A stretch of DNA of 53,709 nucleotides, filler included, from Sluysia triapertura (lineage: Eukaryota): NCBI GenBank assembly GCA_046118255.1. It is 4 parts of 4 records of this genome, joined end to end, with 100 filler letters (N's around TTAATTAATTAA, not from the genome) between each part and the next. Parts side by side here need not be neighbours in the genome. Positions count along the whole stretch, not along the records: positions 25,910 to 37,973 come from JBJNIA010142611.1; 3 more parts are not named here. One strand, given 5' to 3'. The notes beneath the pieces are model-generated. The model did not search any database. It was not told where the DNA came from and was given only the letters and a program-made list of their open reading frames with translations. Position 1 is the stretch's first letter; each line of letters opens with the position of its first letter. The position numbers and the translations under genes were made by a program. This document shows positions 9,073 to 48,624 of the stretch, piece by piece.

Positions 9073-9957
9073 ATGAATTTTATAAACGAAAACTATCAAT
9101 TGAATTGTGCAAGTCGAATAAATGACCCTAAAAGAATGCATATATCAAATATTCCATTCAGCTATCGTGAAATGGATTTAAAACAATTATTGAAAGGCTA
9201 TAGTGTAATTCTAGATGTGGAAATTATTTTTATTAAAAAAGGATCAAAAGGATTCGGCTTTGTTACCTTCGAAAACGCATTTGATGCAGATAAAGCAAAA
9301 AATGATTTAAATGGAAAAGAAGTAGAAGGACGTAAAGCGGAAATTAATGTTGCTACTCCCAGATCTATTTTCAACAAAAGAAAAAAATATGTTTTAAACC
9401 AAACTAATGTTTTCAATTTAGAAAATGCCGAAATGTCGTATAAATTGCAATTTCACCCATTCAGAGAAATGTGTTGCCATTTTCATTTTGATAATACTTT
9501 TAGAAATGTAAGATTTTCAAAAGTGTGCAAGCATTGTAAAGCATTTAATACAAGCGATATGGATAAACTGGAAACAATTAAAAGAAAGAGCTCTGTTTCT
9601 TCAGATATAGTTATCCCACCAAATACATCATTTGGTGCACAACCAAAAAATGAAAATTACATCGATAATAACAGAGTCGGGATATGTCAATTCACAACAG
9701 ACGATTTTGGTATATGTCGTAGATCTGGCCACTCATGCCAATACAACCATAATATTTTCGAAACGATTTCTAATCCTATCAATGATTACTATCAAAATGA
9801 TCATATTAATAGATTCAACAAATTATTACTTTCTTTGCGAATCAATCCCACAAATTCCTTATCTACATGTGACAATTATGAGCTAAGCAATAAACATAAG
9901 GATAATCAGATTAAAGTCAAGAGTAAACTTTATTGTTATAAAAATTTTTATATATAG
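9073..9957 (+). CDS. Intronless RBFOX/Fox-1-type RRM protein with a C-terminal CCCH zinc finger (retrocopy-like chimera)
   Basis: [15 protein letters not shown]...[46 protein letters not shown] matches the [30 protein letters not shown] is a CCCH finger. The ORF is uninterrupted, first ATG at 9073. Confidence 0.85.
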
Positions 9958-13484: not shown

Positions 13485-13584
13485 NNNNNNNNNNNNNNNN
13501 NNNNNNNNNNNNNNNNNNNNNNNNNNNNTTAATTAATTAANNNNNNNNNNNNNNNNNNNNNNNNNNNNNNNNNNNNNNNNNNNN
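13485..13584. other. Artificial contig linker (N-TTAATTAATTAA-N)
   Basis: Six-frame stop linker at 13529-13540 inside an N run. Confidence 0.95.
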
Positions 13585-13656
13585 TTTTAAACTGTGCCGC
13601 CAAATTTTGAAATCTTTAAAATAGTGCCGCAACAAAAAAAAGGCTGAGAATCACTG
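13585..13656. mobile_element. hAT-like MITE terminus abutting the gypsy RT
   Basis: gtgccgc subterminal repeats and the end ggctgagaatcactg, whose reverse complement is a CAGTG-TTCTCA-type hAT end. Confidence 0.55.
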
Positions 13657-15541
13657 ACTTAAAATAAAACTTACAAAATGTGCATGGGCAGAAGAAAAAG
13701 TATCTTCTTAGGACACATAATATCTAAATATGGTATCAAACCAAACCCAAGAAATATTGAAAAAGTAATCAAGTTTCCTCAACCTGATAATGTTAAAAAG
13801 GTTCAGAGTTTTCTAGGTCTGGATAATTATTATAGGAGGTTTGTTAAAAATTTTGCAAAACTCGCTCAATCCCTCAGAATCTAACAAAGAAGGACACAGA
13901 ATTTAAATGGACCGAAGAACAGAAAAAGGCATTTAAAGAACTAAAGGAACATCTAACTACAGTACCAATATTAATATTTCCGGTATTTTATAAGCCTTTC
14001 CTACTAACTACAGATGCTAGTAATTATGCTATTGGCACAATTTTAGGTCAGAAAGACAAGAATAATCTTGAAGCAGTCATAGCACACGCCAATCGAAGAC
14101 TTAACAAAGCAGAAACGAATTATTCGACTGTAGAGAGAGAATGTTTAGCAATTGTATGCGCATGTAAATTGTTTAGACATTATTTATTATGACAAAAAGT
14201 TTATTTGTACACTGACCACAAACCCTTGACATATTTATATAATGACAGAGATGAAGTCAGTAGACTTAACAGATGGTTTAATAAACTGTCCGAATTTAAC
14301 TTGGAAATTGTTTATAAGCCAGGTAGCTTAAATAACGCAGCTGATTGTATGTCTAGATTGACGAATGTAGACAACAAGGGAAATATCAATTTCATACAAA
14401 TTATGTCGGTATCGGGGAAAATGCAAAACTCTGAAGAAATTATTAAACATCAGAGAGAAGATAAAGAGACTTCCGCTCTTCTAGATGCATTAGCTTAAGG
14501 AACTTTAAATGAATTACAAGCAAAAAGATTAGCTATCATGGATGGAATATTAAGATTTAAAAACATTTAAGATTTATACCTATTCTAATACAATTTCATG
14601 ACGGACAATTAGGAGGTCACTTATCAACAAGGAAAACATTATCCAGAATTAAAAGTAAATACTATTGGGAAAATATGGAATCCGATATCAGAAAATGGTG
14701 CAAAGGCTGTTCAATATGTTGTCGACGAAAGAATACTGGACAAAAGACCAAAACCTATGCCAGTACCACTATCATCAATGGAATTTACCGCTATGGACAT
14801 TATGGGTCCTCTTCCAGAAACCATTAATGGCAATAAGTATATAATTGTATTTGTGGATTATTTGACCAAATGGCCAGAGGCCTACTCGATGCCTAACCGA
14901 AAGGCTGAAACAGTAGCACAGATACTTGTAGAAAAGATAATAAATATAGATATGGAACTCCTAGAAAATTATTAACAGATCAAGGGACTAACTTTACTAG
15001 CGATGTAATCAAATCAGTAGCTAAAATCTTTAATATTCTACGAATTTACACGTCGCTTTACCATTCACAAACTGATGGACTGGTGGAACATTTTAACAGA
15101 CTCTCATCAATATGATCCAATCTTATATATAGCACCATGTCTTTACCAATTTATTTCACTCCGTTTTACCTAATGTATGCTGGTCGATTTGGAATGGGTT
15201 CCACCTACTTCACAGAAATTCCGGAATACGTGACAACAATGAGAGAACAATTACAAGACGCACGGAAACTGGCATGTCTTCAAATTAAATACTCTCAGGA
15301 AATATATAAGTACACATATGACAAAACAGCAAAAGAACATACATTTAAGATAGGTGACGAGGTGTTAATAGATTATCCAATAACTAAACCTAGTCAATCA
15401 CCTAAGTTACATAAACCTTTTAAAGGACCTTATCTAATAACAAAAGTTAACGATACAAATGCGTTTGATAAAGATCCTAATAAAACTAATTCTGAAACTT
15501 TTGCAGCACACGTCAATAGATTCAAGATGGCACCAATATAA
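13657..15541 (+). mobile_element. pol: Ty3/gypsy pol of element A (RT thumb, RNase H, integrase with GPY/F), frameshifted
   Basis: FLGHIISKYGIKP, VQSFLGL.NYYRRFV, TTDASNYAIG, YSTVERECLA, YTDHKPL, ADCMSR, HHCC motif (H...GGH...CKGC), MDIMGPLP, TDQG, KPFKGPY, HVNRFK. Confidence 0.95.
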
Positions 15542-15579
15542 TTTAAGAAATAGAAAAGTTTTTTAAATCAAAACTGAAA

Positions 15580-16242
15580 GTTCAGCCAAGGCACAAAGAT
15601 CGAGATAAACCACCTTCAATTCATGTACTACGAAATAAACAAGTGGTATTTATGATGCATTCCCATGGAAATGACCTGGCTCATATAATGCAAAACGTGC
15701 GATTTAACGGGCGATGTGTTAGAGCAATTGTAGATACCGGTGCTACTGTTTGAGTAGTTCATAAAAACTTTTTAACTACGTGGGAATCAGTGTTCTTAAA
15801 TAGACCAACTCTACTAACATATAATGTTAATCAAACACTCATAAATATTAATGGAACTTTATTATGTTATATAGAAGTATTAGGGCAATATGTACAAGTT
15901 TTAGTAAATGTTTGAGATAATAGCCCATACGGAATAATATTAGGCACGGACGTTATCAATAAATTAGAAGATCTGGTCATTCACAGTAAATATGGCTTTA
16001 TAAAAGTACCACCATGTTCAAATATGATTATACCGCAATTATTAGTTCCACAAGTTGGTGATGTATTAATCTTATATCAAATGCCAATTTCGAATCCACC
16101 ATTACAAGTTCCAGACTTACTATTACCCGATATTGTTGAATCTACACTTCATTTATCTAATATATCATGGGGATCACCATCGACAATTACATCGGAGGAA
16201 AATTCGGATCAGGAATCGGATCAGATGTTCAAGAAACAGTAA
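15580..16242 (+). pseudogene. Second retropepsin-like aspartic protease downstream of integrase (element A)
   Basis: RAIVDTGATV at 15721-15750 and YGIILGTDVINKL near 15930-15965, with in-frame stops. Confidence 0.85.
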
Positions 16243-18470
16243 TGATAATGACTAGTATAAGAAAAAGAAATTGTTTTAACAAAAATTGTTTTAGTAAAAT
16301 ATCTTGTTGGTTTTATATCTTAACTGTAATTTTTCTATCACTTATAATTAATGCTATAGCAATAGAAACAGATGAAGAATACAAAAATATGAATATCGCT
16401 ACAAATCACGGTAGAGAATACAAAATAATGATTAGCGATATATACAATCAATACTGGAAATTTGAATTTATTTCCAAGAAAATGATTTTACGACACAAAT
16501 TTGAAATTTATTGTATCTATTTAAAACCCTTACTAGTAGGAAGACCACATCATTTAAACGGTATCCCACATTGTCCGCATTATGGTTACAGACCTGTGTT
16601 AATAACTTTTCTCTAGACACCCCAAGAAATACACGAGATATCTCGAAATTTATCAAACAAATAGATCAATTAAGAAATGGAGAAACAACAAGAATACAGA
16701 CAACCTTATCCGATTATGGTGCAATTAAGAGACAGATAAATAATTTAAACAATTCAACTGCAAAAGGTACAACGAACATTCTTATAAATTCTTGATAATG
16801 TTACTAATTTTCACAGTACTATACATATTTTGGATTATACTCTATTTGTTTAAAATTGGTAAAAAGATCTTATAACTTTAATTTTGATTATGATAGTTAC
16901 AGTAGTCCAATGCGACGAACAATCCTTTAAAACGGAATACTTTGAATTCTATAATAGAAATAATGAAGTAAAGGTTAAAATATTGAACCAAAACATTCAT
17001 GCCAAATGTGCCTGTTTAAAACCCGCCAAACTTAATTTTAGTTCATGGATCAAATACGAAAATTATATTAATAGTGAATTGAGATAACCAGTCACGGTTT
17101 GCTCAGATATTTTGCCTATCGAAGGTAGACATTATAGTGAAAATCCATCATTCATCAAAACATTCGCATTTTGCATTTAAAGGAACAAGAAAACATTTAA
17201 CAATATTAGAAATATTACGGAATATTGTTTGTAATTGCTTTAGCTATAGTAGTATTGACTATTATTATGTTTGTTTCAAACAAATGTCGATACCCATGCC
17301 TACCACATAACAATAATAATGATGCATACACAGTTCCACATCGAAACAATTATGCTCTTCCACCAGGTATGCCGATACTTCCACCTCCAATTTATGAATA
17401 CGCCACAAATAATCAGATACCACTTATATATGGGTTCTGGCAAATGACTCAAGTAAAGTCTACAATTCTGATATGTATTTACTTATCTTACAAATCAAGT
17501 ACAAATTATTTATCAGGAAACATCGCACCTAAGATAATTCTAGTATCAACTCAAAAGGATATTTACGCTAAAATATTAACAGATAAGGTTAAATTATTTG
17601 CTGTTCAAATAAAATGTTTTTTAAAGGATTTCTACTGGTTTATATCGTATATTGACCTTGTTGAATATCAACTATTCAACGTAAGGTTAGCTATAAAAAT
17701 GGAATATGAATTTCAAAGTGATTCAAAGATTATTTTACTAAGCTACTACAAAATAATAACTAAACCGTTTGTGTTTCAACAATCACCGACATACAACACT
17801 AAGACTAAACCATCTGTCTCTAAGAAATCATCAACGTTAATTGAATTTCGAATGATCATCTATCGATATCTTGGAAATGTTGTACGTATTCATAACCCGT
17901 CATACAATAATACGTTATTGATCGCCTACGAATTGAGTGATGATTTACGTTATGGAATAATATTACCTAATGATACTATTCGTTTGTATCATCTTCCGAA
18001 TAATAGACTTTTGTTCATTAAATTTGGATATTAAGAAAAGCAGAATTATATGATTCCAAAGGATTTTGGCCAACAATCAGATACTATGACGTGCAGGTAC
18101 CAATTATAGATAAGTACGAAAATGATTTAGATACGAAATCAGAAAAAACGTTCAAAAGTGATAACAACGTTATGAAAATACCTTATGATGGGAATAGGAG
18201 TATAAACTCGAGTAATACCAATCGGAACAGGAGCATAAGTGCGAATACTACAGTATAAGTATGAATATAATTAAGGAGACTACTAGTTGTTCAATTATAA
18301 AAGAATCCAACAATAACTTTATCACAACTATAAACTATATTTTAATAATAACTTCTTTGTTAACATTAATAATTAACTTTATTATCCCAAAGTTTTACTT
18401 GTTTATTAGGCAGAGGGCCCATTTTTTTCATATAAGTTTTAATACATATTGCATAATTGACCACATGTAA
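16240..18470 (+). pseudogene. Accessory membrane polyprotein of element A (signal/TM segments alternating with about 3 ectodomains)
   Basis: Colinear homology with 35096-37216, e.g. IYCIYLKPL/IYCIYWKPL, YFEFYN/YFDFYN, PAKLNFSSW/PARLNFSLW, YTVP/YSVP, ITKPF/IKTKPY, GFGQQ/GFGQQ. Confidence 0.8.
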
Positions 18471-18711: not shown

Positions 18712-18918
18712 ATGTCATTCTGTACGTGTGCCATTTGCTTACACTGTCTTAGGAATTACTTCGCCAAAACCTCCCCTTGTCTCCACCGTTTTCACTTTTT
18801 CTGTCTATACGATCTTTTTGAATCCTCCCCTTCACCTTTACCTAACTGTCCCTTATACCGGACCACCATTATAAACGCTCCTTCCGTCGTTCCTATGAAT
18901 TCACGGTTAAGTACATAA
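18712..18918 (+). CDS. Small RING-H2 finger protein (element A accessory; last Cys changed to Tyr)
   Basis: CAIC...PCLHRFHFFC...NCPLYR, preceded by an acceptor-like ttttttag. A homologous RING lies at 34647-34848. Confidence 0.75.
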   Translation: MSFCTCAICLHCLRNYFAKTSPCLHRFHFFCLYDLFESSPSPLPNCPLYRTTIINAPSVVPMNSRLST

Positions 18919-19029
18919 CAGACAATTCGGAAAAACCCGGTATTGATATATATCAGCCGGCGTTTGGGAATGTATTTATTTTGATAGCCTGTCGCCAATT
19001 TGGTAAGGTTGTTACATGGCCTTGTTTCG

Positions 19030-20019
19030 AGATTAGAGAAATAGGTTTTACGAAAAATTATTCGAATTATGTTAATGCTTACATATTTATTTAATGTAGG
19101 TTTAATATTAAATATTACATGACAACGTTGTCTTAAGGCGAAACTAATATTGGAAACTTTATTGTTCAGCAATTGCAAATACATTATTTTTTTATTCGTG
19201 TTTACTTTCTTTAACAGATACATATTTCTTTTAAAAGTTAGATTATTAGTATTTATATAAACAATAAAAATTTTATAATGAACCAAACAGGAATTGTTTA
19301 TTATCATGAAATCAAATAGGCAGTATAAAAACTTTAAATTGTTATCGAATCTCGAGTTCAGAATTACTTGTTTTACTGCTGATTTTATTGCTGCACCTCG
19401 TCGTATTTCATAAATCTGAGTACTGGACGCATAATCTAAAAAGGATAATATACTAAAATAATGAATTAAATAAAAAAAATTAGAAATTACTAAAGATATG
19501 ATTTCAATATGGCCGTTATTGTTAGCATTTTGGAAAATCCTAGAATCGCTAGACCCTCTTGTCTTCACCAGATGAATGTATATGTGATAACTCAATTTGG
19601 AGATATAAATCAAATTGATATTGAGTCTTCGATCCGAAATTAGTTACTTTGGATGTAACATCATAAAAATTCGCAATAATAGATCTAATTGAAATCGACA
19701 TAGAATTTGATTTGTTACATTCAGGGACAACATGATCATGGCTAACTTCGATTGATTTCCAGTAGTGTTGGATTAAAGGATACTGAGTCACAATATCATA
19801 ATTTTCATTGAGAAAAATCATTATGAATGACTTTAAAATAGCCTTGTAATTAGTAACTTCATTTGAGAAATAAACCATAATAGAATTAAACATCACATCA
19901 CTTTCATCAGTTAGTTTTGCCAAGTCAAACACATTGTAAGCGTTTTCCGAATTCGCAGAAAAATGGCCATAACTAAATCGATGAACTACTTTTATGGGCA
20001 TCTTTAAAGCATGGTTCAT
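19030..20019 (-). pseudogene. Unassigned ORFs downstream of the PIP4K fragment
   Basis: Overlapping ORFs 19549-20019 and 18792-19613 with no recognisable motif. Confidence 0.3.
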
Positions 20020-20138: not shown

Positions 20139-20746
20139 GCTTAAGTTGATACTTTATGCAAATAGGAAGGTGGACTAAACGCATTTTTTGTGACTAACAT
20201 TTAGTAAATTTGATCAGATACTATTAAACGATACATAGCTAAACGATACATAACTAAAGGGTTTCTCCATACGAATCAACAATATATGCATGATAAGCTT
20301 CTAATAAATAATGTACTTGTTCAACATCTTTGCTAGTTATAATCTCAAAAACAAATTGATGATCATATGTTAAAAGATATTTCTTATTCGGACTCCATTC
20401 TGACTGCTTTTTAGTAAAGGTATTAAAATAATCCGAATCTTTAATATTAAATCTTTCTTTTAAATTTTTAAGCATCAAAGTACAATATTCTTTGAATTTA
20501 TATCTACTAGGCATATTTTCTTTGCTAAACACTTGGTTATGAACTTTTACTTTCATGTAAGATTTAAAATCATAGTTTAGTAAAACAGCTCTTGATTTTA
20601 CATGAATCATTTGTGTTAATGAATAATTAACTTCCCACATAAGAACACATTTGAGAGGCTCTTTTGAACGAAATAACTTTAATTTTTGACGGCCTCCTTT
20701 TACTTTTTGTCTTGATTGAGTTGCCGTTATTAAAGCATCACTATAC
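20139..20746 (-). pseudogene. PIP4K2: Intronless, truncated PI5P 4-kinase type II (PIP4K2) retrocopy
   Basis: QKLKLFRSKEPLKCVLMWEVNYS...DFKSYMKVKVHNQVFSKENMPSRYKFKEYC...YHAYIVDSYGETL, then MYRL...VTKNAFS...KYQLK in shifted frames. Confidence 0.9.
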
Positions 20747-20829
20747 TGGAAATTTTAGATTAATAGTAAGTGATTTTTAAAAGGTTTTAATACTATTATT
20801 GTTGTTTAATGATTAGTGTAATCAAATTT

Positions 20830-21750
20830 GATTTATTAACTTTTCTATTTTTAGACCGTCTTTCCTAGTTGGTCATCCAATCAGGCCTTATCTAGTGTAT
20901 CATTAAATGAAATTCAATCTGACTGGATGACAGGCAGAGAACAAAATCAATTAGTAAAAATAACAATTACAAATGGTTGGCCATCATCAGTGTTGACACG
21001 ATAATGAAGATTGTGATGAGCAATGTCAACACTGGTGATGGTAGTAACAAATTGAATTGGTTAATAAAATTTTGATTATTAAATACTTTCGTAATTTAAT
21101 AATAATAATAACAATATTGTTATTATTATTATTAACAAAAAGGAAAAAAGTAAAAAGATGTATAATTTTCTTTTATCGAACTCACACGATCTTTCTTTAT
21201 TTTAATCTTGACTTTCTTAACATATAAAAGATAAAAAATTAAACAAAAATTGATAAAATAGAATGAAATAGCGACGATAACAGGATGCACTATGCTCGAG
21301 CTATCGTTATTTCGTTGTATAAAATTGAATTCCTTAAAAATGTACACGATCTTCTTTAATTCTTACAGATTTTTAACATGTAGTAAATTTAAAGTGTATT
21401 TGGGACTAAATTTCTGAGTAATAATTGTTTATTGAAAGAATTAATAAGTATAATTAACCTTTGAAGATATAATAATTGAATTGAATCGTGAGATGAAACA
21501 GAGAATGTTAGAATGAATTCTTAGATATTGATTGAAGTTTATAATAGAAAACAAGATTTAAATATTTGGAAGATCGTGGATAAAAGGCCTATTGAGAAGA
21601 TTGTAATTTAAAAAATCTAAAAGGGCAATTACAATACAACTGTTGGTATATTTTGTGTGATTTGTTTGTTTGATGTTTTTGGTGTTGTTGAAGATTATGC
21701 ATAGATGAATAGTGAATTTAAGATGTAATTGATTCGAAGATGTGTGTTGA
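20830..21750 (-). repeat. Leader/LTR-like repeat, copy 1 (homologous to 30338-31250)
   Basis: About 900 bp of colinear similarity, including ttcgaatcaa, aattcactattcat, ctcgagcatagt and two hairpins. Confidence 0.85.
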
Positions 21751-23800: not shown

Positions 23801-25113
23801 AATATATTGTATAGTATAAAAAAAATTGAAGAAAAAAAATAGAAAAGCAGATTGATAATAAGGATAAAAGAAATAATAATAATAATGATAACAATAACGT
23901 GATTATTATGTTTATTAATACTGAAATGTTGATGTTGAAATTTATTGTGAAAATTATTATAAAAGTTATCATAAAAGTTATTATTTGATAATCATATTAT
24001 ATACAATAATGACTATAATTATTATATATATTTTAATACGATCAGAATTGTAATAATAATAGCAGTAGTACGTGATAATTAGGTGCGATGATTATGTTTG
24101 TTTTTTAAATGAGTTTAGTAGTTTGTTTAATAATCTGTGTACATGTGAAGTGTTTTTATGTGATATAGAATTATATTATGAATAATTACACAGTTTGTAT
24201 GCTACATTACTTTTGAATTAACCTAATGTTTTAAACAAGCATAACAATACTGGTAGTGAAAGAAAAGTTGAATTTCATGAAATAAAATCAATGTGCTTAC
24301 AAGACAAATCATTAATCTAGTAAAGACATATTCAACTAGATTAATGATTTGTCTTTACTGTCAGCATGCAAAATGAACAAATAGTATAATTTTTCTTAAG
24401 TTTTGACTTATTTTATGTTTAATCCCGCATATCAACAACAATTAATTGATTTTATGACAGAAAGCGTTCAAAATTTGCGTTTATAATTAGCCTTCATCAT
24501 GTAACTAAATGAAAATTATTACGGGTATTTAGTAAACAATATTAAAAACTATCTTTTAAGTTATTGTTTTACAAAAAGTACTAATTTCGTACTGTGCGCA
24601 ACAGTGAAAGCAATTTTATCTACTATTTCGCGCCTACGGTTACATATGTCCCATTAGATTTTCAAATATAATTTTTTTTCCTCTGTGAATGAATTTTATA
24701 TATCGATTAGGATTCATTCGTCCCATAACATTTCCTTCAATAACAATGATAATGATAATAATAATAATAGCAAAATCTAAATTTAGATTCTAAAGAAATA
24801 TCTTCGAAAAAAATTTATTTCAGACGCATCTTTTTAAAAATAGATGAAAATAATTTATTATAAAATATGCAAAGATTCATTTCGGTTTATTTCAATACAC
24901 TATTAAAATCATTAAAAATTTGTATAATTCAAAAATTTAGTAATTTTAAAATTATTTTAATTAATTTGAAAGATAGTCGACTATAAATAGAATAATTAAA
25001 ATTTAGTGCAACCATTATTTCATATTTATCATAAATTTATCATAAATAAATTCCATAAAATTATTTAAAAACTAAATAACAGACAATGCTACAAGATTAT
25101 TAATAAAAAATAC

Positions 25114-25350
25114 TTTAGATATAAGTTCGAGGTCTTTCTTGTTTGCATGGATCACTTCTTCTTTATTAACAGATCCAATTTCAAAACCATCACATTTAAT
25201 ATCGACAATATTTAAAGGGTTTATTCCAATATCTAGTGACTGAGCACCGGTTGATCCTTCTTTGACATCAAAAAAGAATAATTTAAATTCACTAAGGGCC
25301 AAATACTGCTTCTTCCAACCTTTTCTTATTCCGCCTTGCTTATGAGGAAC
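25114..25350 (-). CDS. CDC42BP: Exon of an MRCK/CDC42BP (genghis khan)-like kinase, PH domain
   Basis: AG/GT-bounded 237-nt exon encoding VPHKQGGIRKGWKKQYLALSEFKLFFFD...SVNKEEVIHANKKDL. Confidence 0.8.
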
Positions 25351-25673
25351 CTGAAACATGGAAAGTAAAAAAAGTCATGTATTTTTTCCAAATTTATCAG
25401 TTTATTTATGAATTTATGAAGTTTAGTACCAAATTCGTTTGAAAAGCTTACGAAAGAAAAATTAATTATAATGGATTGAAATGAAATTTTGACGTCATTT
25501 TAGTTTTCGTATTTGTTCTACATTATGCATTTAAATTGGTACTTCATAGATTTTAAGCAGAAGACTAACATACAATACAATAATATTCAGAAAAAGTCAA
25601 TAATGATTTTTACGTTAGTTTCAATGTGAACTATATATTAAATAATAAAAATTTATTTTGATAGATAAAATAC

Positions 25674-26882: not shown

Positions 26883-28439
26883 TCATATCATATAAACTAA
26901 GTTTCTTGGAGGAGGTTGATATAGGTTTCGTTTTTCTTTTATTTCTTTATCAACTCTTTCTATATTAATTATTTGTAGTACAATTTCTTCTCTTTGTTTT
27001 CGTTCAATTTTCATAACATTTAATTGAGCATGAGCATGATGATGTAATTGGATGTTTAGAATGGGAAACATCCAATTATTAATTTCCAGGTTGATCCAGA
27101 TGTTTTAAAATACCTACTACCGAAAATATTTGAGATATAATACAAGCATATACCTGCTAGACTCCATAAAATGGATTGCCAGGGCATCGAACCTGGCACC
27201 TCTTGCTGAGCAGTTCGATACTCTACCACTGAGCTATCAGCTCCGTCTAACAATTTTATTTTATTATATTCAATTTTACCAAATGGCACTTTAGGCTTTT
27301 TACCCCAACATACCTATGAATCCTGAAAATGCTTGTCTTATCACTAAGAAATATCCCCTTATTTGTTTAAAGTATTACGTGCTATTAAGTGGTCTGGTCC
27401 TAAAAGTAGTTCAAAATTTACTTTACTGTCTTTTCTACAATTGCCTTAATGGGAGATAATATTTCACACCAAGCTGCTTGAATTTCTTCGTTTTAATACA
27501 TTCCTGACCAAGAGATATTTTTTATAGCTGAAAATTTTAATTTTGATTTTGATTCTCTCAAATCTATAATTTCTGGAGTTTTAACTTGGCGGTGAAGTAA
27601 AGATATTCATAAGTTATCATTAATTTTATATTATGGTGCCATCATATTAGAACAGTGTAGTATTTTTGGTTTTAATTAATTTGTTGGTATTATTATTCTT
27701 GTAACAGGTTCTAAGTGAGTTGGTTGATTTTTATAAGTAATTGGTAGTTCATTTGTACATCGTTTTCTTCTCTAATTTGTACTTTTACTTTTTTTACATT
27801 TATGTGTGTAAACTTCACCCATTAACCTACAAAATACGCCTTCTTTTAAAAGAAGTAATGGTGCTACTAAATTTGGATTAGTTATTGCTACAGCCAATTT
27901 AGTTTTTAATATTTCTTTTTTTAATTGGAAATCTCTAGCTATCATAGCTTGATAAACTTTTTCTAACGACATAAGTCCTAAATGGTAATAGAAATCAAGT
28001 TTATTATTAAAATGTGTATTTAATTTTAAATTTTTTGTGTCTATATATCTCTTTGCTTGCATTATTAATTTTTCAGATAAATAAATTCCCTGATAATTTG
28101 GTTCTGTGATTTCTTGTCCGTATCTGATTACTAGCTTTTTTGATGCAAATATTAGTCCATCTTCATCTTTATTTGCCATTAATAGTGTAGGAATTTCTAC
28201 CTCACTAAGTCTTTTTCTTTGTGGTGCATCTAAGTTATCCTTGTAAATTTGTTTTTTATTTATTTCATCTACCACCAAATCTTCATCATATTGATACATA
28301 AATCCGGAGATTAAATTAAATTAGATTTGTTTTAAAAATATTAAAGGGCATTGAAATTTTTCTAATTCATATATTAATGTTGATTCTTCAGTATCATAAC
28401 TTGTTTGATCACTTTTACAGAATGGACGTGACATCATAG
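26883..28439 (-). pseudogene. env: Chuvirus-G / herpesvirus-gB-like (class III fusion) envelope glycoprotein, decayed
   Basis: NNKLDFYY...LKKEILKTKLAVAITNPN...EGVFCRLMGEVYTHKCKKVKVQ...CTNELPITYKNQPTHLEPVTRII...CSNMMAP.YKINDN...SGMY, followed by the TM region FSGFIGICLYY. This is the motif order of chuvirus-type glycoproteins. Confidence 0.75.
27155..27310 (-). mobile_element. ~156-bp TG...CA element with a tRNA-like core, 4-bp TSD TACC, inserted in env
   Basis: tacc|TGCTAGAC...CCCCAACA|tacc. Removing it restores the env frame (SGFIGICLYY). Confidence 0.8.
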
Positions 28440-29909: not shown

Positions 29910-31270
29910 TGTTGTGGTCAAACTCAACACTTACTAAAATTTCATTAAAAACCAAAATTTATTTTTTCCCTTTTCTAATTATTCCATCAATCACACATCC
30001 ATCTATTTCATATTTTTTAAATCAAATATATGCCCTCAATCCAAATCACGAATACACCTAACATTACTAAATTACATTAACTAACTCACCAGAAACAATA
30101 CTAGACATTTACAATAATTTAACAACAAACACATCTGAAACAATCCAACTAATACTTTCGAACCTTCATTTTACACTGCCCTGTAACAATTAATACCAAT
30201 ATTTAATAATATTTACTCAATAGTTTATTGGTTTAAATCAAATCACAATCGCAACATACAACATATAAACCATAAGTACAATTAATACTATTTCACAACA
30301 TCAATAAATTTACTCGAAACATATAAAGTAGCTACTTCACACCTTCGAATCAAGTAAATCATTTCAAATTCACTATTCATCAATGCATAATCATCATTAA
30401 CACAGAACATCAACACCAAAACACCAAACAAAATAATCACACAAAACATAGCATAATAACATCCTCAATATACAAAAAGTTATATTGTAATTCCCCTTTT
30501 AAATTCATTAAATTACAACCTTCTCAATAAGTCTTTTAACCATTATGTTTCAATACATAAATCTTGTTTTCAAACATAAACATCAATCAACATCGAAGAA
30601 CTTATTCTAACATTCTAATTCACTTCAAGACTCAAATCATATTATATCTTCAAAAGGTTAAATATATTTATGAATTCTTTAAAACAATTCTTTAAAACAA
30701 TTCTTTAAAACAATATATTTTAATCTACTTCAACAGGATAAAACTTTTCAAAAATTCAAAGTAAATCTAACACAGCTTTACAAAATTCAATGTTATAAAA
30801 CGAAGCAGCAACGATAACTCGAGCATAGTATATCCTGTCATCGTTGCTCTTTCATACAATATCAGCAATTTTTATTTCATTTTATTTACAGATGTCAGAA
30901 TAAGAAAAGAATTAAGAAGGAAAAGTCTTGTAAATTTTTAAAGAAATTCATGCGAATTTTATTATTCTTGTTAATAATAATAACAACATTATTATTGTTG
31001 TTATTATTATTATCACATATCCAAAAATAATTTCATTAAAGTTTTTATAAATGTCAAAATCTTGTCGCTACCATCACCAGTGTTGATACTATGTATCACA
31101 TTTCTCATTAATGTGTCAACACTGATGATGGCCAATCATCAGTACTAATAATTTTTGCATGCCACCCAATCAGAGCTGATATTGTTCAGTGTTTTGTCTT
31201 GAGGCTCTGATTGAATGACCAACTAAAATCGAAATTGCCGGATCTAAAAATAAAATGATAATTAAAAAAT
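29910..31270 (+). repeat. Leader/LTR-like repeat, copy 2
   Basis: Begins near TGTGG at 29913. 30338-31250 is homologous to the reverse complement of 20850-21745. Confidence 0.8.
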
Positions 31271-31394: not shown

Positions 31395-32636
31395 ATGAAT
31401 TTTTATGAATCACAACTCATTCTAAACTTAGTTACCAAAAAATGATCTTGTGGATTCTATTACTCTTGATAAATCTGTTCCAAGATTATTTAATATCCGA
31501 AATAACGAAGAATTAGCGTTACAAACAGATTCGACTCTGAGGTATTGCTTGTTTTGTCGTGAATCAACAAATATTGAAACGTTATCAACAAATAGTACAA
31601 GTAGCGTCGTTATTAGTGGCAATTCTGATTATCATCAGCACAATCACATAAGTACATCTTGGATACAATACCCTGTTTCAAATAAAACAGTGGTACGGTT
31701 AAACGAGCACCCAGAATTTACACGAAATTACTTTGTACAAAATGCAAGTTGCAGCCGGGTTCAAAGTTCGAAGTCGTATCATAATGAAATATCAAATTCA
31801 AATTCTAGAATGGTATTACCATTAGATACACAACTTAAGCAAGGTGGAAGTTCAATTTTTAGCATTTTTATGACTAGTACTATTGGTAGATTATGTTCAG
31901 AAAGACAATCATCTGAACAAATACACCAGTTTGTAAAACAAGTAGTCAAGAAATCAATGTGCTTGAGTTTAAGCCGATGATTTCGACGAATAGTGATAGT
32001 TTCGTTACAATTTTGTTACCACAGGCTTCGGATTCGAATAGCCAATCATCATCAACAAGATATACTAAAAGATACCAAAATAATATAAAAATAATTTAAA
32101 ATAATATAAAAAAAAGATACCAAAGATATAAAAATAATTTAGATGTAAACGAAATTTTGCAAGATTTATTGAAAGATTTATGTGATTATTTGAATGTCAC
32201 AACATTTAGTTTAAAAATTCTTCAAAACGTGAGTCTACTACTAAAAACAGATAGCTGTTCATTAATTTTGATAGGAGAAGATCTGATAACTCGTCAACCG
32301 ATCCCTGTTAGTAAATTGTTTGATTTAACCATAGATAATGTTTCGAACAAAGTTATAAATCATTGTCATGATAATACTGTTCCAATTCGATTTAGTGAGC
32401 GTATAATGGGTCACGTGGCTCAAACAGTGAAATATAAAAGTGTTGAAGATGTATATAGAGTTAAACGATTAAATGTAGAAATAAATAAACAGACTTGTAG
32501 TGTTGCAAAATGTGTTTTGTACATGATTCTAAAAGATAATACTGTTATCGTAAGAAAAATAACACAAACAGTTAATAAAGTCAATCAATACCAGTATTCA
32601 GTTAGTCAAAGTTTTCCAAAGTTGTCTAAGCTTTAG
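31395..32636 (+). pseudogene. Intronless decayed N-terminal/GAF-A region of a PDE5/PDE11-type phosphodiesterase
   Basis: LNEHPEFTRNYFVQNA, then LLKDLCDYLNVTTFSLKILQNVSLLLKTDSCSL...VSKLFD...IMGHVAQT...EDVY...NVEINKQT. No catalytic domain. Confidence 0.8.
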
Positions 32637-32999
32637 TGTAGTGAGTATAAAAAGGCACAAGTTCATTGTCAATTCCAGTTACATACTTGTCGAAATCAAT
32701 ACAGAACAATAAACAAACAAAACGAAACTACCGATTTAGTCACAGTTGAAGATGGAGAAGAAGATGAAGATATTTACTTTAAGAAGGTATCCTTAGTAAA
32801 ATTTTATTTTTTATTTTTAATTCGTTGACATTATTTAATTTAGATAATCTCCAGAAAAGGTATCATTTCATGTGGCAAGACGCGACAACAAACTCGACAC
32901 GTTCGAAAGTTATAATCAATGAAGGATTAAAATTAAAATGTTTAATACTTAATCTAAATTTTAATTCAATAAAATATTTCTTTTACATGATTTATAATT

Positions 33000-34394: not shown

Positions 34395-34634
34395 TTAAGT
34401 ACTTTTCTTCTTGAGAAATGGATTATGTTTAATTTTCAGATTACTCTTATATGAACCTATCTTTTTGTAAAATCGTCTTAATTGTCTCCTGCGACGGTTG
34501 TGTTTTTGCGAACGCGTCAGTCCAGGAGGAAAATTTGGTTTAGGTACACTTATTTTATTATTATTAAACTGTTTATAGTAGGTGGGCTGAATGATTTCTA
34601 TTTCCTGTATTTGAATACTATTAATATTTTCCAT
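34395..34634 (-). CDS. Small Arg/Lys-rich ORF (element B)
   Basis: PPGLTRSQKHNRRRRQLRRFYKK, directly after the RING ORF. Confidence 0.45.
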   Translation of the reverse strand: MENINSIQIQEIEIIQPTYYKQFNNNKISVPKPNFPPGLTRSQKHNRRRRQLRRFYKKIGSYKSNLKIKHNPFLKKKST

Positions 34635-34646
34635 ATTAATATTTAG

Positions 34647-34848
34647 TTAAATTTCTTCAAGTGCATATGAATGACGAAATTTTCCCTTATAGAATACTTG
34701 TATTTCTTCTACTATTGTTATACATAATGGACAATTCATATGCTTTGCTTATGATGCATTTAAAATGGAGTTTATGTATGCATGGAAATGTTTTTACGTA
34801 ATGTTTGTTGATTGCCTTTTGACAAATTGGACATTTGATATAGTACAT
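34647..34848 (-). pseudogene. RING-H2 finger ORF of element B (one frameshift)
   Basis: MYYIKCPICQKAINKHYVKTFPCIHKLHFKCII, then NCPLCITIVEEI in the shifted frame, preceded by ttcttattttag. Confidence 0.75.
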
Positions 34849-35095: not shown

Positions 35096-37216
35096 CTATA
35101 CCTTGATTGAGCGAGTTAATCTACGCGTGTTAATTACATAAATTTTTATGACTTCAGTCGTAAGATTGACTGCAAGTAACGCATAAAGTATGAATGTTAT
35201 AAGAGATAAATATATGTTGATTTTATTTGAATTGGCTTGGTCGCTATTGTTGATTATTTTAATTGAAAAATTATTATTTGGAGTTTTAATAATTTTATTA
35301 GTTTTATTGAGTTTAGTAGTTTTCTTATTTATTGATTTTGTCATTTCGTACTTATTATACTTATTTAATGTATCTTCAATAGTTTCATTAATAATTGGTA
35401 CTACTAAATTAAATTGTTGTCCAAATCCAATACGGTTCATTTTAAATGTTTCATTAATGAAACGTATCCATACATATATAAATGGGAACGTCAATTATGT
35501 TTGGTAATCTATTCTAATTGTTAACTTAGGTGGTATTAACTCTATAGTGGAAACCTTATTGGTACGATATTTTATGGCGATTGGATTATTTAGTAACGTG
35601 TTGGTCATTTTAACTAAGTTATTTCTGTCAATTATTGCTGTAAAGGAGCAATTCATCCATTGTCTACTAAAATAATCAAAAAATAAATATGGTTTAGTTT
35701 TAATCCAGTGATACTGTGTGTATATTAATCTATTTATTAGCTCTATTGATATCTTAACTTTATATAATTGGGATTCGAACAATTCTTCACAAGTTATGAT
35801 CCATTTTTTGATTGTTATATAAGGGATGGCTGAAGTAGTGCATTGATCTTGTAAGCAGCATCTTATAGATAAGTGAATTAATTTTCCATTTATGTTTTTA
35901 ACACTAGCTATAATTTCATCGGTTTTCACTTGAATAGATAATTGCATGTCATTATAAAACATTTTCTTGCTTAATTTGTTTGTCGCATTAGCAGTGATTA
36001 TACATGTTAAACAAATACATAGTAAAACTGATGACATTTGAATTCCGTTGTAATGTGTCTGTAATCTTAAATCATCATTATATTCGTCTAATGGAGATGG
36101 CATTAATGGTGGTCCTGGAGGAGCATAAAATCGATTGATTCTTGGTACTGAATAATGATTATCGTCGTCGTTATTAGATGAAAAATTCAAATATCTATAT
36201 TTGTTCATTATAATAAACGTGATCATTAATAATGTTATAATTAAAGCAATAATAAATAATGTTGCTGCTATGATTAGAATTGCCAATGATGGATCTTTTC
36301 GTAATGAGTCTATAATGGTTAATTCTTTTCTATTACCTTTTATGGCATAATGTAGTTGTTTAATTATTTTGGCTTGCTTTTTTATAAATATTACTATATG
36401 TCTGTCTTCAGAAAGCAAAACATCCTTACAAATTGTAACGGGATATTCTGTATTTGGTATTGCATGTTGATAGGTTTCCCATAAACTAAAGTTGAGTCTT
36501 GCGGGATTAATACATATATAATTTGCTTTTATGTTCATATTGGTCATTTTGATTTGTACTTCTGTGTCATAGTTGTAAAAATCAAAGTATTTCGATCTGT
36601 ATACTTTCTGTGATCCATTTGCTATTGATATCATTGATAATATAGTGAGTAACGTTATATCTCGACGAATGTTATTAGTTTTTAAAATCCTATTACAAGT
36701 GATAATGTAATAAATGCTAAATAACAAGTATATTATAGTGAAAATTAGAAGTGCCAGTATAAAGATATTCTTTGTACAATCTTCATTCTTTTTTCTTATT
36801 GTATTTGTGCTTATTTCCTTATTATTCATACTTGTTTCTTTATTTACTATTTTATCTGTTAATCTTTCCAAATATCTTGTTGTTGTTGGTGGTGAAATTA
36901 TTTAAGTTTCCTTGTAACATTGTTCATTAAGTATGTCCGTGAAATTTATTGTTATTAACTTACAATTATAAAATGAAAATCCTATTATTGTAGTAAAATA
37001 GATTGAATGTTCACATTGGTAAATATCATCTACTAACAAAGGTTTCTTTATTACTAATGGTTTCCAATAGATACAATAAATTTTTAAATTATAATTGGGT
37101 ATTGTGTTTCTATCGTCTATTTCAACTGTCCAAAATCGATTGAAAATATTTGTAAGAAAGATTGCCTGTTTAGTATCAGTATAGCTTGTTAAGTTTGTTG
37201 GATAATGAGTTATCAT
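35096..37216 (-). CDS. Accessory membrane polyprotein of element B (nearly intact; ORFs 36902-37216, 35495-36871, 35096-35494)
   Basis: Multiple TM and signal segments, a Tyr/Pro-rich cytoplasmic loop, and colinear homology to 16240-18470. Confidence 0.8.
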
Positions 37217-37231
37217 GGTAGTTAATTGAAG

Positions 37232-37800
37232 TTATCTGTAGTTATCTGTTCCTATGCCTGATGTTGAAGAAACTGTGGTATCCCACCAATCAAGATTTTC
37301 CCAATTCGGAGTTGGTGATGGTGGTATAATTGGATTCAATTCTGTAATTTGATAATTCTGTGGTAGAGGTGGTACTGGTCTTGGCATTGGAGGTAAAACT
37401 AATTGTGGTAATACTACATGTGTTCCTGAAGGTATTTTGAGAAATCCTAATCTTCCATGAATTACATTATTTTCTAGTTTATTTATTACATCCATTCCTA
37501 ATATAATATCATATGGGCATTTTTCCCCAACTAATATTGTTACAAACAAATCTACGTCTAAAATTGTTAATTGACATTGTAATATTCCATTAAATAAAAT
37601 ATATGAATCGTATTCCAGCTTGTTGTAACATTGTAATTTCTAAAGCATTTAGTCTATTGTAATTAATAATAGTGTTATTTGAACCTGTATCTATGACTGC
37701 TGGTACCCATAGTTGATTGAATTTAATGCTTTGAACCAAGTGATTTTGTATATTGAAAGAAGAGGTTATCATACTTATTGTACTTATTGGTTTATTATTT
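37232..37800 (-). pseudogene. Second aspartic protease of element B
   Basis: VPAVIDTGSNNTII (DTG at 37683-37691) and CPYDIILGMDVINKLEN, homologous to 15580-16242. Confidence 0.85.
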
Positions 37801-37973
37801 GATAAATCCGTGCTTAATAACTTAGATGGTTTATCTCTGTCTTTAATCCTTGGTTTAACCTTTAATATACTTTTCGTAATCTTTCTATTTCTTAAGTTAT
37901 ATTCGTCATTAGGTGCTAATTTACATCGATTTACGTGTACAACAAAAGTTTCCGCATTCATATCATTAGGTTT
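37801..37973 (-). mobile_element. Integrase C-terminus of gypsy element B, in frame with the second protease
   Basis: AETFVVHVNRCKLAP..YNLRNRK...KVKPRIKDRDKP matches element A SETFAAHVNRFKMAP..NLRNRK...KVQPRHKDRDKP. Confidence 0.85.
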
Positions 37974-38073
37974 NNNNNNNNNNNNNNNNNNNNNNNNNNN
38001 NNNNNNNNNNNNNNNNNTTAATTAATTAANNNNNNNNNNNNNNNNNNNNNNNNNNNNNNNNNNNNNNNNNNNN
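37974..38073. other. Artificial contig linker
   Basis: TTAATTAATTAA at 38018-38029 inside Ns. Confidence 0.95.
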
Positions 38074-39289: not shown

Positions 39290-39594
39290 TTAATTTGTTC
39301 TGTCAATAATTTTATTACTTTTAATAATATTTATGCCTTCAGCCTTTAATCGTTTTAATATCGGTCTATAAATATCGACAGTTAAAGGTAAAACTATGCC
39401 CTTCCGTTGAATTTCCCCATCCATGATCATTTTTACTCCAATCGCAGCTGGATAACCCACTGTTTTACCCATTGCCATAAAACCATTCGGATCACCGTAG
39501 CATACAAGACGAACTTCATGCTTTTGAATTTTATTTTCTGGCCATTTAATAAAAACTTCATGTATCATTATAACCACGTCACGTTCATTGGGTT
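39290..39594 (-). CDS. AASS: Last exon of alpha-aminoadipic semialdehyde synthase (saccharopine dehydrogenase C-terminus)
   Basis: Acceptor actttcag, then PNERDVVIMIHE...LVCYGDPNGFMAMGKTVGYPAAIGVKMIMDGEIQRKGIVLP...IYRPILKRLKAEGI. Confidence 0.9.
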
Positions 39595-40724
39595 CTGAAA
39601 GTTATTATTATCATTGTCAAGGTAAAACTGACGCGTTATAAATTATGTATAATAGAACACATTAATTTATTTTGAAATTAAATTTATTAAAACCTTATAA
39701 TAAAATTCTAAACTAGTAATAAGATGATAGTTAAAACGTGAACGGGTATAAATAAAGTAGCAAGGCAGAGAACAGATACAAAAAGTAACTAATCGTTTTT
39801 ATCAGACAATAGTAAAAACGTATGTTTAAAGTTACAAAAGCTTACTAATTATCTACAACCTGAGAATACTTATACTCCTCCTGTCCGGCAATGATAAATA
39901 CAACTATTATTTTATAATTTCCAGTTAACTAACTCAGTTCGGTATTATAACTGTCATTCAATCCAATTCCTCTTTGTTTGTAAACAAATTTGTAAAGTTA
40001 TTTTATAAGTTTTTTCCCTTAATTAATTTAATGGTCAAACTGCGATTAAAAATCATTTGTAAACTTCATTCTAGCATAAGGCTATTATAAAACATTATAA
40101 AAATATCTCAAAAAAATCATTAAAAAAATTAATTGTATATATTGTTATACATTTCTATTACAAAGTTTGTATATAGTAATATAATTAATTTGTGATTAAT
40201 ATTATTATTTGTGTTTAAAGCAAAGAGCAGCAAGAAAAGTCACCATTCTTTTATTTGGTGTAAAGGTTATGAAGGAGATTTTACGAATTTTGATATAAAA
40301 GATTAAAATCGATATTTGTTGACAAAACTCTTATAAAAGAATACAAGCTTAAAGGAATCGTAGTTTCCAAAGGAGTATAAAAGCAATTGGTTTATTTATA
40401 GTGTAGTCAAGATGATTGTTTTTGTAGTTACAACAGACCCTATTAACATTTTAAAAATGTATTAGAAAGAAAAGATGTAAACCATTTACTACAGGAGAAG
40501 ATATTTTATTTTTTAGTGAATTTTTCCTAGTAGAACACTTGCATCATCATCATAATGCTTTAAATTTTGAAGTACAGTAATGACTAAAGAGAGTAAAGGT
40601 TATCAAATTCTTCCTCAAATACTTTAAGTATATTTCAAAATTCTTTTATCATTAATTTTCTTACGATCACACATAATAGAATAAGAGAATCTAAAAATAC
40701 AAATTACGTAATTAAAAAACGTGA

Positions 40725-44463: not shown

Positions 44464-45737
44464 ATAATATTTTATTATGCATTACTAAAAAATTTAAAAA
44501 TATACAGTACTTCAGAGTACACAATACATGATTGTAATGACAGGATTACAATCCAAGTTAAATGTGTAACCTGTGCCTTACGAAAAAATGTCACAATCTG
44601 TCAACGCTCATCAATAAAGACCTTAAACAACATTATGAACCATAGAGATGTCTGGTTTTCTCACCAATCAAAACCGCTACGGGAACACCTTACATTTTGT
44701 GACTACAATATATTCGACGGAGCTGTAATCGGACTAACACACAAGCTGCTCGGCGGATCAGACGTCGACGCCGACATGCCCTTCAGACAACAAAAAACGC
44801 AGAAGGTGAACACCTTTGAAACTCCCTTCTTCACTGACGAATCTGGACTCCCAAATACATGGTTCCTCGTCGTGGAAGCACATTTTGAACGATACAACAT
44901 AAAACGACAGAGCACCATGTTTAACCAGTTACTTCCTCTCCTTCCGCAACCTCTCTTAAGCAAATTAGGCAGCAAGATTCAAACTTGTTTGCAGTCGGAG
45001 AGCGCCTATGACGATTTAAAACAAACAATCTTGGCACACTACCGTCCCAATACACAGAAAGTGTTCCAAGATTATTTCAAGGCGCAATCCTTAGGGACTC
45101 TTTCCCCTTCAGAATTTCTGGCCAAGATTAGAAATGATCTTGAGCCCTTTGGTTGCGAAAAGGATGAAAATCATGACGTCCTAAAGAGATTATTCTTGGA
45201 CGCCATGCCCACCGAAGTCCAGACCGTACTTACCGGCAGCCAAATTCACGATATTAAAGAATTGGCCAACCTTGCCGACAAGATAATAAATCAATGGCGA
45301 ACAAGGCGTACAGACACCATAAGTTCCATGAACGATACACCACAATCTAAGTCAGGCATCACTTTAGAATCCATGTCAATGAGGATCGATGCCCTGACCG
45401 CACAAGTAGCTGAAATCACCAAATTAGTCGCTACAAGTCTGACGCAACACGCCAGCAATCCTCCCACTAGACGACAATCACCACCGAACTCCGGGTCCTC
45501 ATTGCTATCCCGAAAATCAGCCAGCAGTCCCGGAAGGTTCAACGGTATCTGCTATTACCATGACAAGTACAACAGAAAGCAAAATGTTGTGTACTAGGAT
45601 GCAGATACCCCAATAAGTTGAACACACTCCGAATAAAGAATATTTGCATATACCATGCACATTTCAAAAACCTGGCCAAGCGATGCATGGACGGCTGCAA
45701 TCAATTCAATACTTTCAATGCAGCATCAAAAAACTAA
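44464..45737 (+). mobile_element. gag: gag of a CsRn1-clade gypsy element with an N-terminal ubiquitin-like domain and two CHCC knuckles
   Basis: The frame is open from 44464. Ubl ITIQVKC...KPLREHLTFCDYNIFDGAVIGLTHKLLGG, then PNTWFLVVEAHF...YDDLKQTIL...PSEFL...ELANLADKI, then C-x2-H-x9-C-x3-C twice (1-nt deletion near 45578). Confidence 0.85.
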
Positions 45738-45778
45738 ACTCGCCATTGGTCGTAGCGGCCAGACCGGACAATATGGCG
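45728..45778 (+). promoter_or_regulatory. Probable -1 ribosomal frameshift site between gag and pol
   Basis: Slippery AAAAAAC at 45728-45734 is followed by the gag TAA, then a downstream stem CGCCAT...ATGGCG with inner tggtcg/cggcca. pol is in the -1 frame. Confidence 0.65.
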
Positions 45779-48624
45779 ATCAACAGTATATTTTCAGTGC
45801 CGCTCAGATTTATCAATTTTCAGCATGTCTCCCTCGAGTTTCTTATTGACACTGGAGCCGCTGTTTCGGTGATACCACAAAAAATTATAAATAACACCGT
45901 CAAAACACATTCATATTTAACAGCAGCTAACGGAACAGCCGTGGCTTGCTATGGCTCCCAGAAACTCCAATTTCAAATCCACCCGTTCAAAGAAATACTC
46001 GAATGGACTTTCCTCATAGCGGCAGTTCAACAACCAATATTAGGAGCAGACTTTTTTAGTCATTACAAGTTCTCGGTTGACTGCCACACAAGAACTCTAC
46101 ACAAAACCTCCGGATAATTGTCACACATAAAGATAGAACAAAATCAAATAAACGAAACAAACGTTCTTTCTTATGTGGAGCAGGTGTATCCAAACTTAAT
46201 TTAACAACAATTCAATCCGGATTATACACCTTGCTCGGAGCATTTCATTAATACACTACCCACCCCACCGTGTAGACAGCGACGAAGGGAATTAGCGCAA
46301 AAAATCCGTTCCTAAGCAGAGCTCGAATTCCTTGACATGGGAAAACAAGGAATTGTGCGGCGATCTTCTTCACCCTGGGCCGCACCTCTGCAAATCGTCA
46401 CAAAAAAAGATGGCACTATTCGCATATGCGGTGACTACAGAATGCTAAACAAAGTCACTATTCCTGACGCATATCAGATGCCTCTTATAACCGATATTTT
46501 ACACCGATTTACGAAATGAAGCGTCTTTTGCTCAATAGACCTCGCAAAGGCATATCACCAAATACCGGTACATACCGCTGATATACCAAAAACGGCCGTG
46601 ACTACTCCTTTCGGTCTCATTGAGTATATCAGAATGCCTTTTTGTCTAAAAAATTCCTCTCAAACTTTTTAACGGCACATCGATCAAATATTACAAGGAT
46701 TGCTGTTCGTCACATAGTGATCACTTCTAAGGATTTTCACCAACACCAAATCCATTTGGATGCAGTGTTAAAGAAACTGGCAGACAATAATTTGGTAATC
46801 GAACCCACGAAATGTCAATTCTTCCAGTCTAGAATTACATTTCTGGGACACCATATATCTGCTTGAGGCATCGAACCATCGGAAACCCATACAGCAGCAA
46901 TAAGAGACTTTCCGCAAACTCAAACGGTCACACAAATGTGGAGTTTCTTGGGATTAGTAAATTATTGTCACAGATTTATACGAGGCTATCACATATAATA
47001 GCCCCTCGGGCAAGAAATCCCAGTCAATTATGTGGAACCAAACATCCTTAGCATCCTTTCATTGTACAAAGAAGTGATCATGGAAATGAAAAGTTTAGCT
47101 TTTCCGCTTCCACAAGTACCTTTTATTCTAACTACGAACGCCTCCAATATAGCAATCGGCGCGGTAATTGTGCTGGACCTATTGAATTCTTTTCCCACAA
47201 ATTATCAGGGCACCAAACAAGGTATTCCACATTCGATCGAGAATTGCTGGCTATCTTCCTATTAATAAAACACTTCGAGTACTTGTTGGTACCAGCTCAA
47301 TTCACACTTATATCAGACCACAAACCCGACTCCAAGGCAACAACGGTACATCAGCTATCTTTCTCAGTTAATTTTAATAATGAATACATTTCGGGACAAG
47401 AAAATGTGGTTGCATATGCCTTATCTCGCGTAAGTATAAACAGTATTGAATTTTTACCAATGTTCACTGTCGAAGACCTACAACGGAATCCTCGAACAAA
47501 TCAAGAAATCGCTCAGTTCAGCGTAACACCAATATTGCGTGAGGGAATTTACTTCAATAATCAATTATCAGACATCGCACGCCCAGTTATTTACCAAGAA
47601 CTACGTATTCCAGCTTTCCAATACGTTCACAACACCACCCATTGTGGAGCTAAGGCGACTTATGAAGTCTGACGCTCTAAGGTTGTATAGCCATCAATGC
47701 GCAGAGATATCAAATATTTGTGCAAATCATGTTTGATATTCCAGTCTGTAAAAGTTCACAAACATACAAAACTGGGACCGCTTCATTTTCCTATAGGCCA
47801 CCTGTTCGAAACAATTCATATGGACATTGTCGGTCCATTACCACAATCGCGTGGCTATACTTATATATTAACAATATTCGACCGACGCAGCCGCTGGCCT
47901 GAAGCCTTCCGAAACCATATCGAGAATCCTGGTTTCTAATTGGATATCTCGCTTCGGAGTTCCTAAGAGAATTATTACGGACCAAGGAGTTCAGTTCGAA
48001 TCCGGCTTATTCAATGAATTAATAAAACAGTTAGGCAGTACCAGATTACGAACGACATCATACCATCCTCAGTCTAACGATATGATTGAGCGCTACCATC
48101 GCGTTATTGGTACGACACAATTGGGTCGATGCCCTTCCGTTAATTTTATTAGGTTGGCGAAATATACCACACACTGCTACTGGATATTCACCAGTCCAGG
48201 TACAAACACAAGATTACCCTTCGAACTATTTGAATCAGAAAACTCTAATGAGAAAATCTATTCTCTCTTATTACGGAAGTATTTCAATGAACTGGACACA
48301 TCTCCCCGACATAATGACAACTCATATATAAACATACCAAAAGACATGCTTGATACTCAATTCGTCTGGGTAGCACTACATCTCTACAAAAAAAGATATT
48401 CTGGACCATATAAAGTTATACAAATAAATCCTGAAAACCGTACAGTTACTATCAATATCAACGGCGTAAACAAAATACTCAACTGGTGCAAATTGGAACC
48501 AGCCACCATTCTTGTAAATCATCAAAAGGAACATTCCCCATCGATCAAGTTCGTTACCTTCGATTCAGCAGTAGTTGTATTACATAACAATGGTAAATTC
48601 AACTATAAGATTAAGACAAAATAA
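45735..48624 (+). mobile_element. pol: pol of the CsRn1-clade gypsy element (PR-RT-RH-IN), decayed
   Basis: [91 protein letters not shown]. Confidence 0.95.

Follow-up and report, generated by a model that had tools for sequence, protein, structure and literature searches.

A selected orphan multi-unit membrane gene in two decayed Ty3/gypsy elements of Sluysia triapertura

Two Ty3/gypsy elements and their gene content

The window analysed here, a stretch of 53,709 nucleotides from Sluysia triapertura (GCA_046118255.1) made up of four parts of the genome with filler between them, is AT-rich eukaryotic DNA and holds two decayed Ty3/gypsy elements, A on the plus strand and B on the minus strand (Table 1). 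The 5' side of each element ends at a gap (A at about 13485-13585, B at 37974-38073). Element A shows the Ty3/gypsy order of RT, RNase H and integrase, with Pfam profile matches to RT_RNaseH_2 (E 5e-33) and rve (E 3e-4), and its best PDB sequence match is Ty3 Gag-Pol (E 3e-21). The GPF/Y motif of the integrase C-terminus appears as K-G-P-Y at about 15420 in A, while its equivalent in B falls in the gap, the integrase tail being the only visible part of pol in that element (65% to A over 20 residues). A third gypsy element in the window, GC-richer and likewise decayed, has the usual order of DUF7041 gag, protease, RNase H and integrase (44464-48624, +).

Downstream of pol, both elements carry the same series of genes, namely integrase, aspartic protease, membrane gene and RING gene. 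The two aspartic proteases share 40-47% identity, and their position after the integrase indicates that the elements have a second protease or that their gene order is an unusual RT-RH-IN-PR. In B, a stop lies five codons before the methionine of the membrane gene, and since the residues surrounding this stop align with the membrane-gene frame of A, a frame running continuously from protease to membrane protein is possible judging by sequence. The RING genes, which lie behind the membrane gene in both elements, score above the Pfam cut-off. Behind the RING gene of B follows an intact ORF of 312 codons for which the sequence and profile searches run here returned no homologue. Behind the RING gene of A lie two antisense ORFs of 283 and 156 codons (18792-20019, -) with no Pfam or PDB match.

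Further downstream, the elements share a non-coding segment of about 0.9 kb that has the same orientation relative to each element, contains CCAAT-like boxes and is more conserved than the membrane gene, its ends being undefined. It is possibly a 3' LTR, an internal or antisense promoter, or a separate repeat; neither the TG...CA ends of paired LTRs nor a polypurine tract is evident in it, and the 5' ends of the elements are missing. Each copy of the segment directly adjoins an antisense host-gene copy, perhaps a piece of cargo whose expression depends on an antisense promoter. The copy beside A is PIP4K2-like (20254-20754, -; E 3e-41) and has 166 codons without an evident intron, and the one beside B resembles the GAF domain of PDE5 (31432-32780, +; E 5e-13) and is followed by a possible short intron at about 32790.

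Elsewhere in the window lie a piece of an MRCK kinase PH domain (25072-25374, -), a piece of a saccharopine dehydrogenase C-terminus (39290-39601, -) and a fragment of 182 codons of a Monjiviricetes-type (class III) fusion glycoprotein (27772-28320, -; Pfam E 1.6e-8) that is unrelated to the membrane polyprotein. An apparently intronless ORF of 309 codons (9028-9957, +) encodes a probably RBFOX-like RRM (E 3e-16), and a CCCH zinc finger in it is weak. The matches to MRCK, PIP4K2 and PDE5 point to a probable animal host.

Table 1. Positions along the window of the features of elements A and B, with the length of uncharged runs in the hydrophobic parts
Feature	Position	Strand	Uncharged run (residues)	Remarks
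A pol: RT end, RNase H, integrase with GPY motif	13660..15541	+		broken; gap upstream
A aspartic protease (D-T-G), after integrase, and Pro-rich linker	15562..16242	+		two in-frame stops; Pfam E 9e-5, below cut-off
A membrane polyprotein	16161..18470	+		seven pieces in shifting frames; further in-frame stops
A leader	16242-16361	+	17	
A TM1	16789-16851	+	21	
A H2	16869-16913	+	13	
A TM2	17213-17278	+	22	
A H3 (weak)	17459-17491	+	11	
A TM3	18330-18386	+	13	
A RING finger gene (C3HC4)	18712..18915	+		
Shared non-coding segment, A copy	20850..21744	+		71% over 847 columns
B integrase tail, in frame into aspartic protease (D-T-G), then Pro-rich linker	37235..37970	-		one frame change within
B membrane polyprotein frame, 706 codons	35096..37216	-		ATG 37216 to TAG 35098-35096
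B domain 1 (aa 1-150)	36767..37216	-		N-terminal leader absent; shares two Cys with A (IYCIY, C-x-H)
B TM1 (aa 151-174)	36695..36766	-	24	followed by 12-residue basic loop
B H2, predicted internal signal 1	36614..36658	-	13	13-residue hydrophobic core; ends S-I-A / A-N-G
B domain 2 (aa 202-309)	36290..36613	-		best conserved unit; low-confidence beta-rich model
B TM2 (aa 310-337)	36206..36289	-	28	
B predicted cytoplasmic loop	36038..36205	-		56 aa
B H3, predicted internal signal 2	35984..36037	-	16	16-residue hydrophobic core from Met394; ends A-N-A
B domain 3 and polar stalk (aa 412-667)	35216..35983	-		beta-rich, low-confidence model
B TM3 and short basic tail	35099..35215	-	16	net +5 after helix
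B RING finger gene (C3HC4)	34588..34848	-		broken by frame change
B orphan ORF, 312 codons	33296..34234	-		intact; behind RING gene; no A counterpart
Shared non-coding segment, B copy	30338..31265	-		

The membrane frame, its selection and predicted topology

The membrane frame is a real gene that has been kept under protein-level selection in both elements. The frame of B, whose limits and strand the initial annotation had given correctly, is broken by two in-frame TAA codons (36904-36902 and 35497-35495, residues 105 and 574), against about 60 internal stops predicted from its composition. A tblastn search with B within the window returned four colinear matches in A (joint E 6e-18, and 8e-7), and from these matches and the hydropathy ten segments were delimited and each aligned against 1000 shuffles. 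For eight of the ten, which share 30-57% identity, p was <=0.003; the other two, the stalk (p 0.15) and TM3 with its tail (p 0.12), did not rise above the shuffles. Across all 525 codons aligned, the fraction of identical nucleotides is 0.55, 0.64 and 0.40 for the first, second and third codon position, a pattern which points to long selection on the protein. A and B are therefore different families with a common gene, the breaks being later decay. The motifs reported earlier for this ORF all occur in B and, save for CIITANA, also in A, where DFGQQ stands for the GFGQQ of B.

Read from its N-terminus, the frame comprises a leader (in A only), domain 1, a long helix, a short hydrophobic stretch (H2), domain 2, a second long helix, a loop rich in proline and tyrosine, a further short stretch (H3), domain 3, a third long helix and a basic tail. 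The earlier description of a single frame in which long helices alternate with short signal-like stretches is thus borne out; domain 1 of B contains, in addition, a weaker uncharged run of 13 residues. In both copies only a short basic loop separates TM1 from H2, and basic residues come after TM3. Domain 2 of A and B has in common Cys235, Cys263 and an N-F-S sequon, as would be expected of a lumenal domain. A point on the other side is that sequons are not enriched in the predicted lumenal parts of B (10 against 7.0 in shuffles, p 0.15). The loop behind TM2 is 46% identical between the copies (z 12) and conserves the motifs Y-x-V-P, P-P-G-x-P and P-x-x-x-E-Y, with P-P-I-Y found in A only. From this arrangement we infer a topology of out-in-out-in-out-in with the domains on the lumenal side, whether the short stretches are cut or not.

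With respect to relatives, the frame yielded no homologue in a word-indexed protein search or among 1.84 billion representatives, and no match in viral and metagenome contigs, Pfam, PHROGs or PDB sequences; its single domains matched nothing in Pfam at E<=10. The expectation that neither a known env nor a host gene would be recovered therefore held for the databases searched, as did the reported lack of class I and class III fusogen features. AlphaFold models built from alignments of two to three rows are beta-rich for domain 2 (pLDDT 52) and domain 3 (pLDDT 32, with seven strands in residues 7-97), both are of low confidence, and their matches in fold searches did not rise above background. 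A likeness of domain 3 to FN3, which had been suggested, was not reflected in any Pfam, PDB-sequence or fold match listed, and the proposed labels of envelope or receptor mimic gained no direct support from folds or homologues. Two types of Env were considered as candidates and judged a poor fit, the F-type (class I) for the three anchors, a longest domain of 256 aa and the lack of a Pfam match, and the gB/G-type (class III) for domains that are too short, the lack of a Pfam match and a z of -0.8 against the class III piece of the window.

Processing of the precursor and alternative readings

The two junctions between the units were judged by the small-x-small (-3,-1) rule, its strict form, (AVS)-x-(AGS), having been picked after inspection of the sequence, and by scores for a 19-residue helix on a crude hydrophobicity scale. 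H2 is 13 residues long in both copies, compared with 21-28 for TM1 and TM2, and scores unfavourably as a helix (+1.6 in B and -0.4 in A, against -5.7 to -6.4). Of the five strict sites in the 706 residues of B, three lie where H2 and H3 end, and the probability that both junctions of B would qualify by chance is 0.003 for the whole composition and 0.025 for a hydrophobic one. The leader of A has a basic N-region and a hydrophobic part and ends in A-I-A. Over the six leader and junction positions of A and B, three sites are strict, one is loose (H2 of A, V-Q-C), one fails (H3 of A, which is short and polar) and one is absent (the leader of B); later decay may explain the two misses in these two copies. 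The pattern of a long stop-transfer helix with a short predicted signal and a (-3,-1) site behind it is seen at junction 1 of B with a strict site and at junction 1 of A with a loose one; at junction 2 it is seen in B but not in A.

Hence the initial annotation of the accessory ORF was confirmed in part: the order of helices and short stretches is common to both copies, but the topology is not fully alike, as B is without a leader and the third signal of A is weak and without a site, so that the refuting condition named in that annotation, an inconsistent topology, applies in part. As to the signalase processing that it had proposed, cleavage is a fair inference at junction 1 and a weaker one at junction 2. 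It is at H3 that the nearest alternative arises, in which the topology is the same and the protein stays uncut, or is cut at junction 1 only, so that H3 is kept as a helix and a multi-pass protein or two products result. We regard this as unlikely, yet as the most serious of the alternatives. The 16 uncharged residues of H3 in B, which equal the run of TM3 in length and score -2.2, the missing site after H3 in A and the long loop ahead of it, unlike the hairpins of Flaviviridae, would all agree with it, while H3 of A, with 11 residues and a score of +3.1, falls short of what a stable helix needs, H3 of B ends in a strict A-N-A site, and H2 is short in both copies.

It is improbable, in our estimation, that the frame represents one or more captured host cell-surface genes carried as cargo, the product of which would mimic a receptor or act as a decoy on the host cell and take no part in particles. 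Capture may happen here, as the antisense host-gene copies beside both elements suggest, and the tyrosine- and proline-containing loop of unit 2 resembles receptor tails. Those host copies, however, are matched at once in database searches, whereas the membrane frame is matched by nothing in the collections named above, and the third codon positions speak for a long divergence within the elements.

About as improbable is the possibility that translation of unit 3 begins independently, at the methionine before H3, on a spliced RNA or one from an internal promoter; the frame would then join several secretory genes in one reading frame and not be a processed precursor. In both copies H3 is preceded by Gln-Met, and Tor elements are described as transcribing env from an internal promoter (PMC4402516). 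On the other side, neither A nor B has a stop in the loop that joins units 2 and 3 (chance 0.007 per copy if non-coding) even though more than half of the residues differ, and no methionine stands ahead of H2 in either copy. Least likely is a highly diverged known fusogen, of the class III gB/G-like or class I F-like kind, misread as several units. In its favour, the neighbours in the ESM Atlas are viral glycoproteins, mostly of class III, at 0.84-0.88 with 134-162 shared features, below the lead threshold of 0.9. The longest span between hydrophobic segments, the empty Pfam result and the dissimilarity to the class III piece speak against it, and R-x-x-R occurs in the predicted cytoplasmic loop and tail but in none of the predicted lumenal parts.

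The explanation we tentatively prefer over these is that the gene is an accessory gene of two diverged Ty3/gypsy elements, encoding an ER precursor that would be cut by signal peptidase into three small type-I surface proteins. The leader would open translocation, each long helix would halt it and each short stretch would restart it, with cleavage at the small-x-small end of that stretch. Domains 1-3 would then lie in the lumen, and the three products would measure about 200, 210 and 295 residues (B numbering). More tentatively still, the tyrosine/proline loop of unit 2 might bind host sorting or ubiquitin machinery, perhaps with the RING protein of the element, and the set of three proteins could take part in budding or in spread from cell to cell with no class I or III fusogen involved. 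Such a role at the surface of the cell or particle, or in spread, is suggested by the position of the gene after pol and by analogy. A bolder reading, which we hold to be rather doubtful, sees in A and B an undescribed complex lineage of invertebrate retrovirus-like elements whose envelope would consist of three small proteins released by signal peptidase and related to none of F, gB and FAST. They would be placed at the tail of a Pol-protease-membrane polyprotein from which the post-integrase protease would free the membrane part, and the cargo would be a RING ligase and captured signalling genes in antisense orientation.

Comparison with known systems

Taken together, the gene is a selected orphan multi-unit membrane gene, an env-like extra ORF in a complex gypsy lineage. 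The comparisons that follow draw on the accessible portions of the cited papers. The searches, which covered the open literature and not Repbase, subscription journals or supplements, turned up neither a gypsy element of this membrane layout nor one in which a protease follows the integrase.

The Env of Tor elements differs from the membrane frame of A and B (PMC4402516), and Troyka elements are described as encoding no envelope (PMC12440569). The giant planarian gypsy elements Burro and GYPSM1 likewise combine RING and other host-control cargo with a membrane gene in the polyprotein, but the env of Burro is placed between gag and pol and has matches among known fusion glycoproteins, and the portion available describes no post-integrase protease (PMC6431247). 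In bdelloids, ORF3 of Vesta4 and Vesta6c is also an orphan membrane ORF after pol with cysteines between hydrophobic regions; it differs in its length of 210-230 aa, its two hydrophobic regions, its RXXR site and its coiled coil, and internal signals or a multi-unit layout are not reported in the accessible text (PMC5408684).

The sORF2 or FAST-like proteins of the MDG1 group are small membrane proteins of N-out/C-in topology which, it is proposed, let LTR elements pass from cell to cell in the absence of a classical Env, an Env-free route in gypsy spread (PMC11952523). They measure about 70-115 aa (viral examples), have a single helix and are often N-myristoylated (PMC11952523), whereas the units described here have 200-295 aa, predicted beta domains and no Met-Gly start. 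This candidate was rejected in view of the 706-codon frame and the lack of an M-G start in A and B, the basic patch after TM1 and TM3 being the only likeness.

The pattern of a long helix followed by a short hydrophobic signal is known from viral polyproteins (PMC8274601). In Flaviviridae, for instance in the pestivirus series Erns-E1-E2-p7, it allows signal peptidase to release type-I proteins and thereby provides the working model for junction 1 (PMC8274601). The comparison is one of layout, with no sequence or fold relation shown; junction 2 of the membrane frame is formed by a 56-residue cytoplasmic loop and not by a tight hairpin, the gene belongs to a reverse-transcribing element, and its cleavage is predicted.

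The errantiviruses are invertebrate Ty3/gypsy elements which, like A and B, carry a membrane-protein gene downstream of pol. The invertebrate gypsy envelopes surveyed so far are of the F-type and the gB-type (Chary and Hayashi, PMC13524379). Such envelopes have one large ectodomain with a signal and a helix or with two helices and are homologous to F or gB, in contrast to the three small domains and three anchors without such homology found here; since that survey, as far as its available text goes, used env baits, it was not designed to detect a gene of this type (PMC13524379). The frame supplies orphan ectodomains, beta-rich in low-confidence models, for folding, and a multi-unit gene processed by signal peptidase and kept under selection in two elements of just 30-47% likeness would add a different design, one that env surveys relying on baits are not suited to detect. 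Should the three-protein envelope reading be true, Ty3/gypsy elements would have come to an envelope by a third route, independent of the other two.
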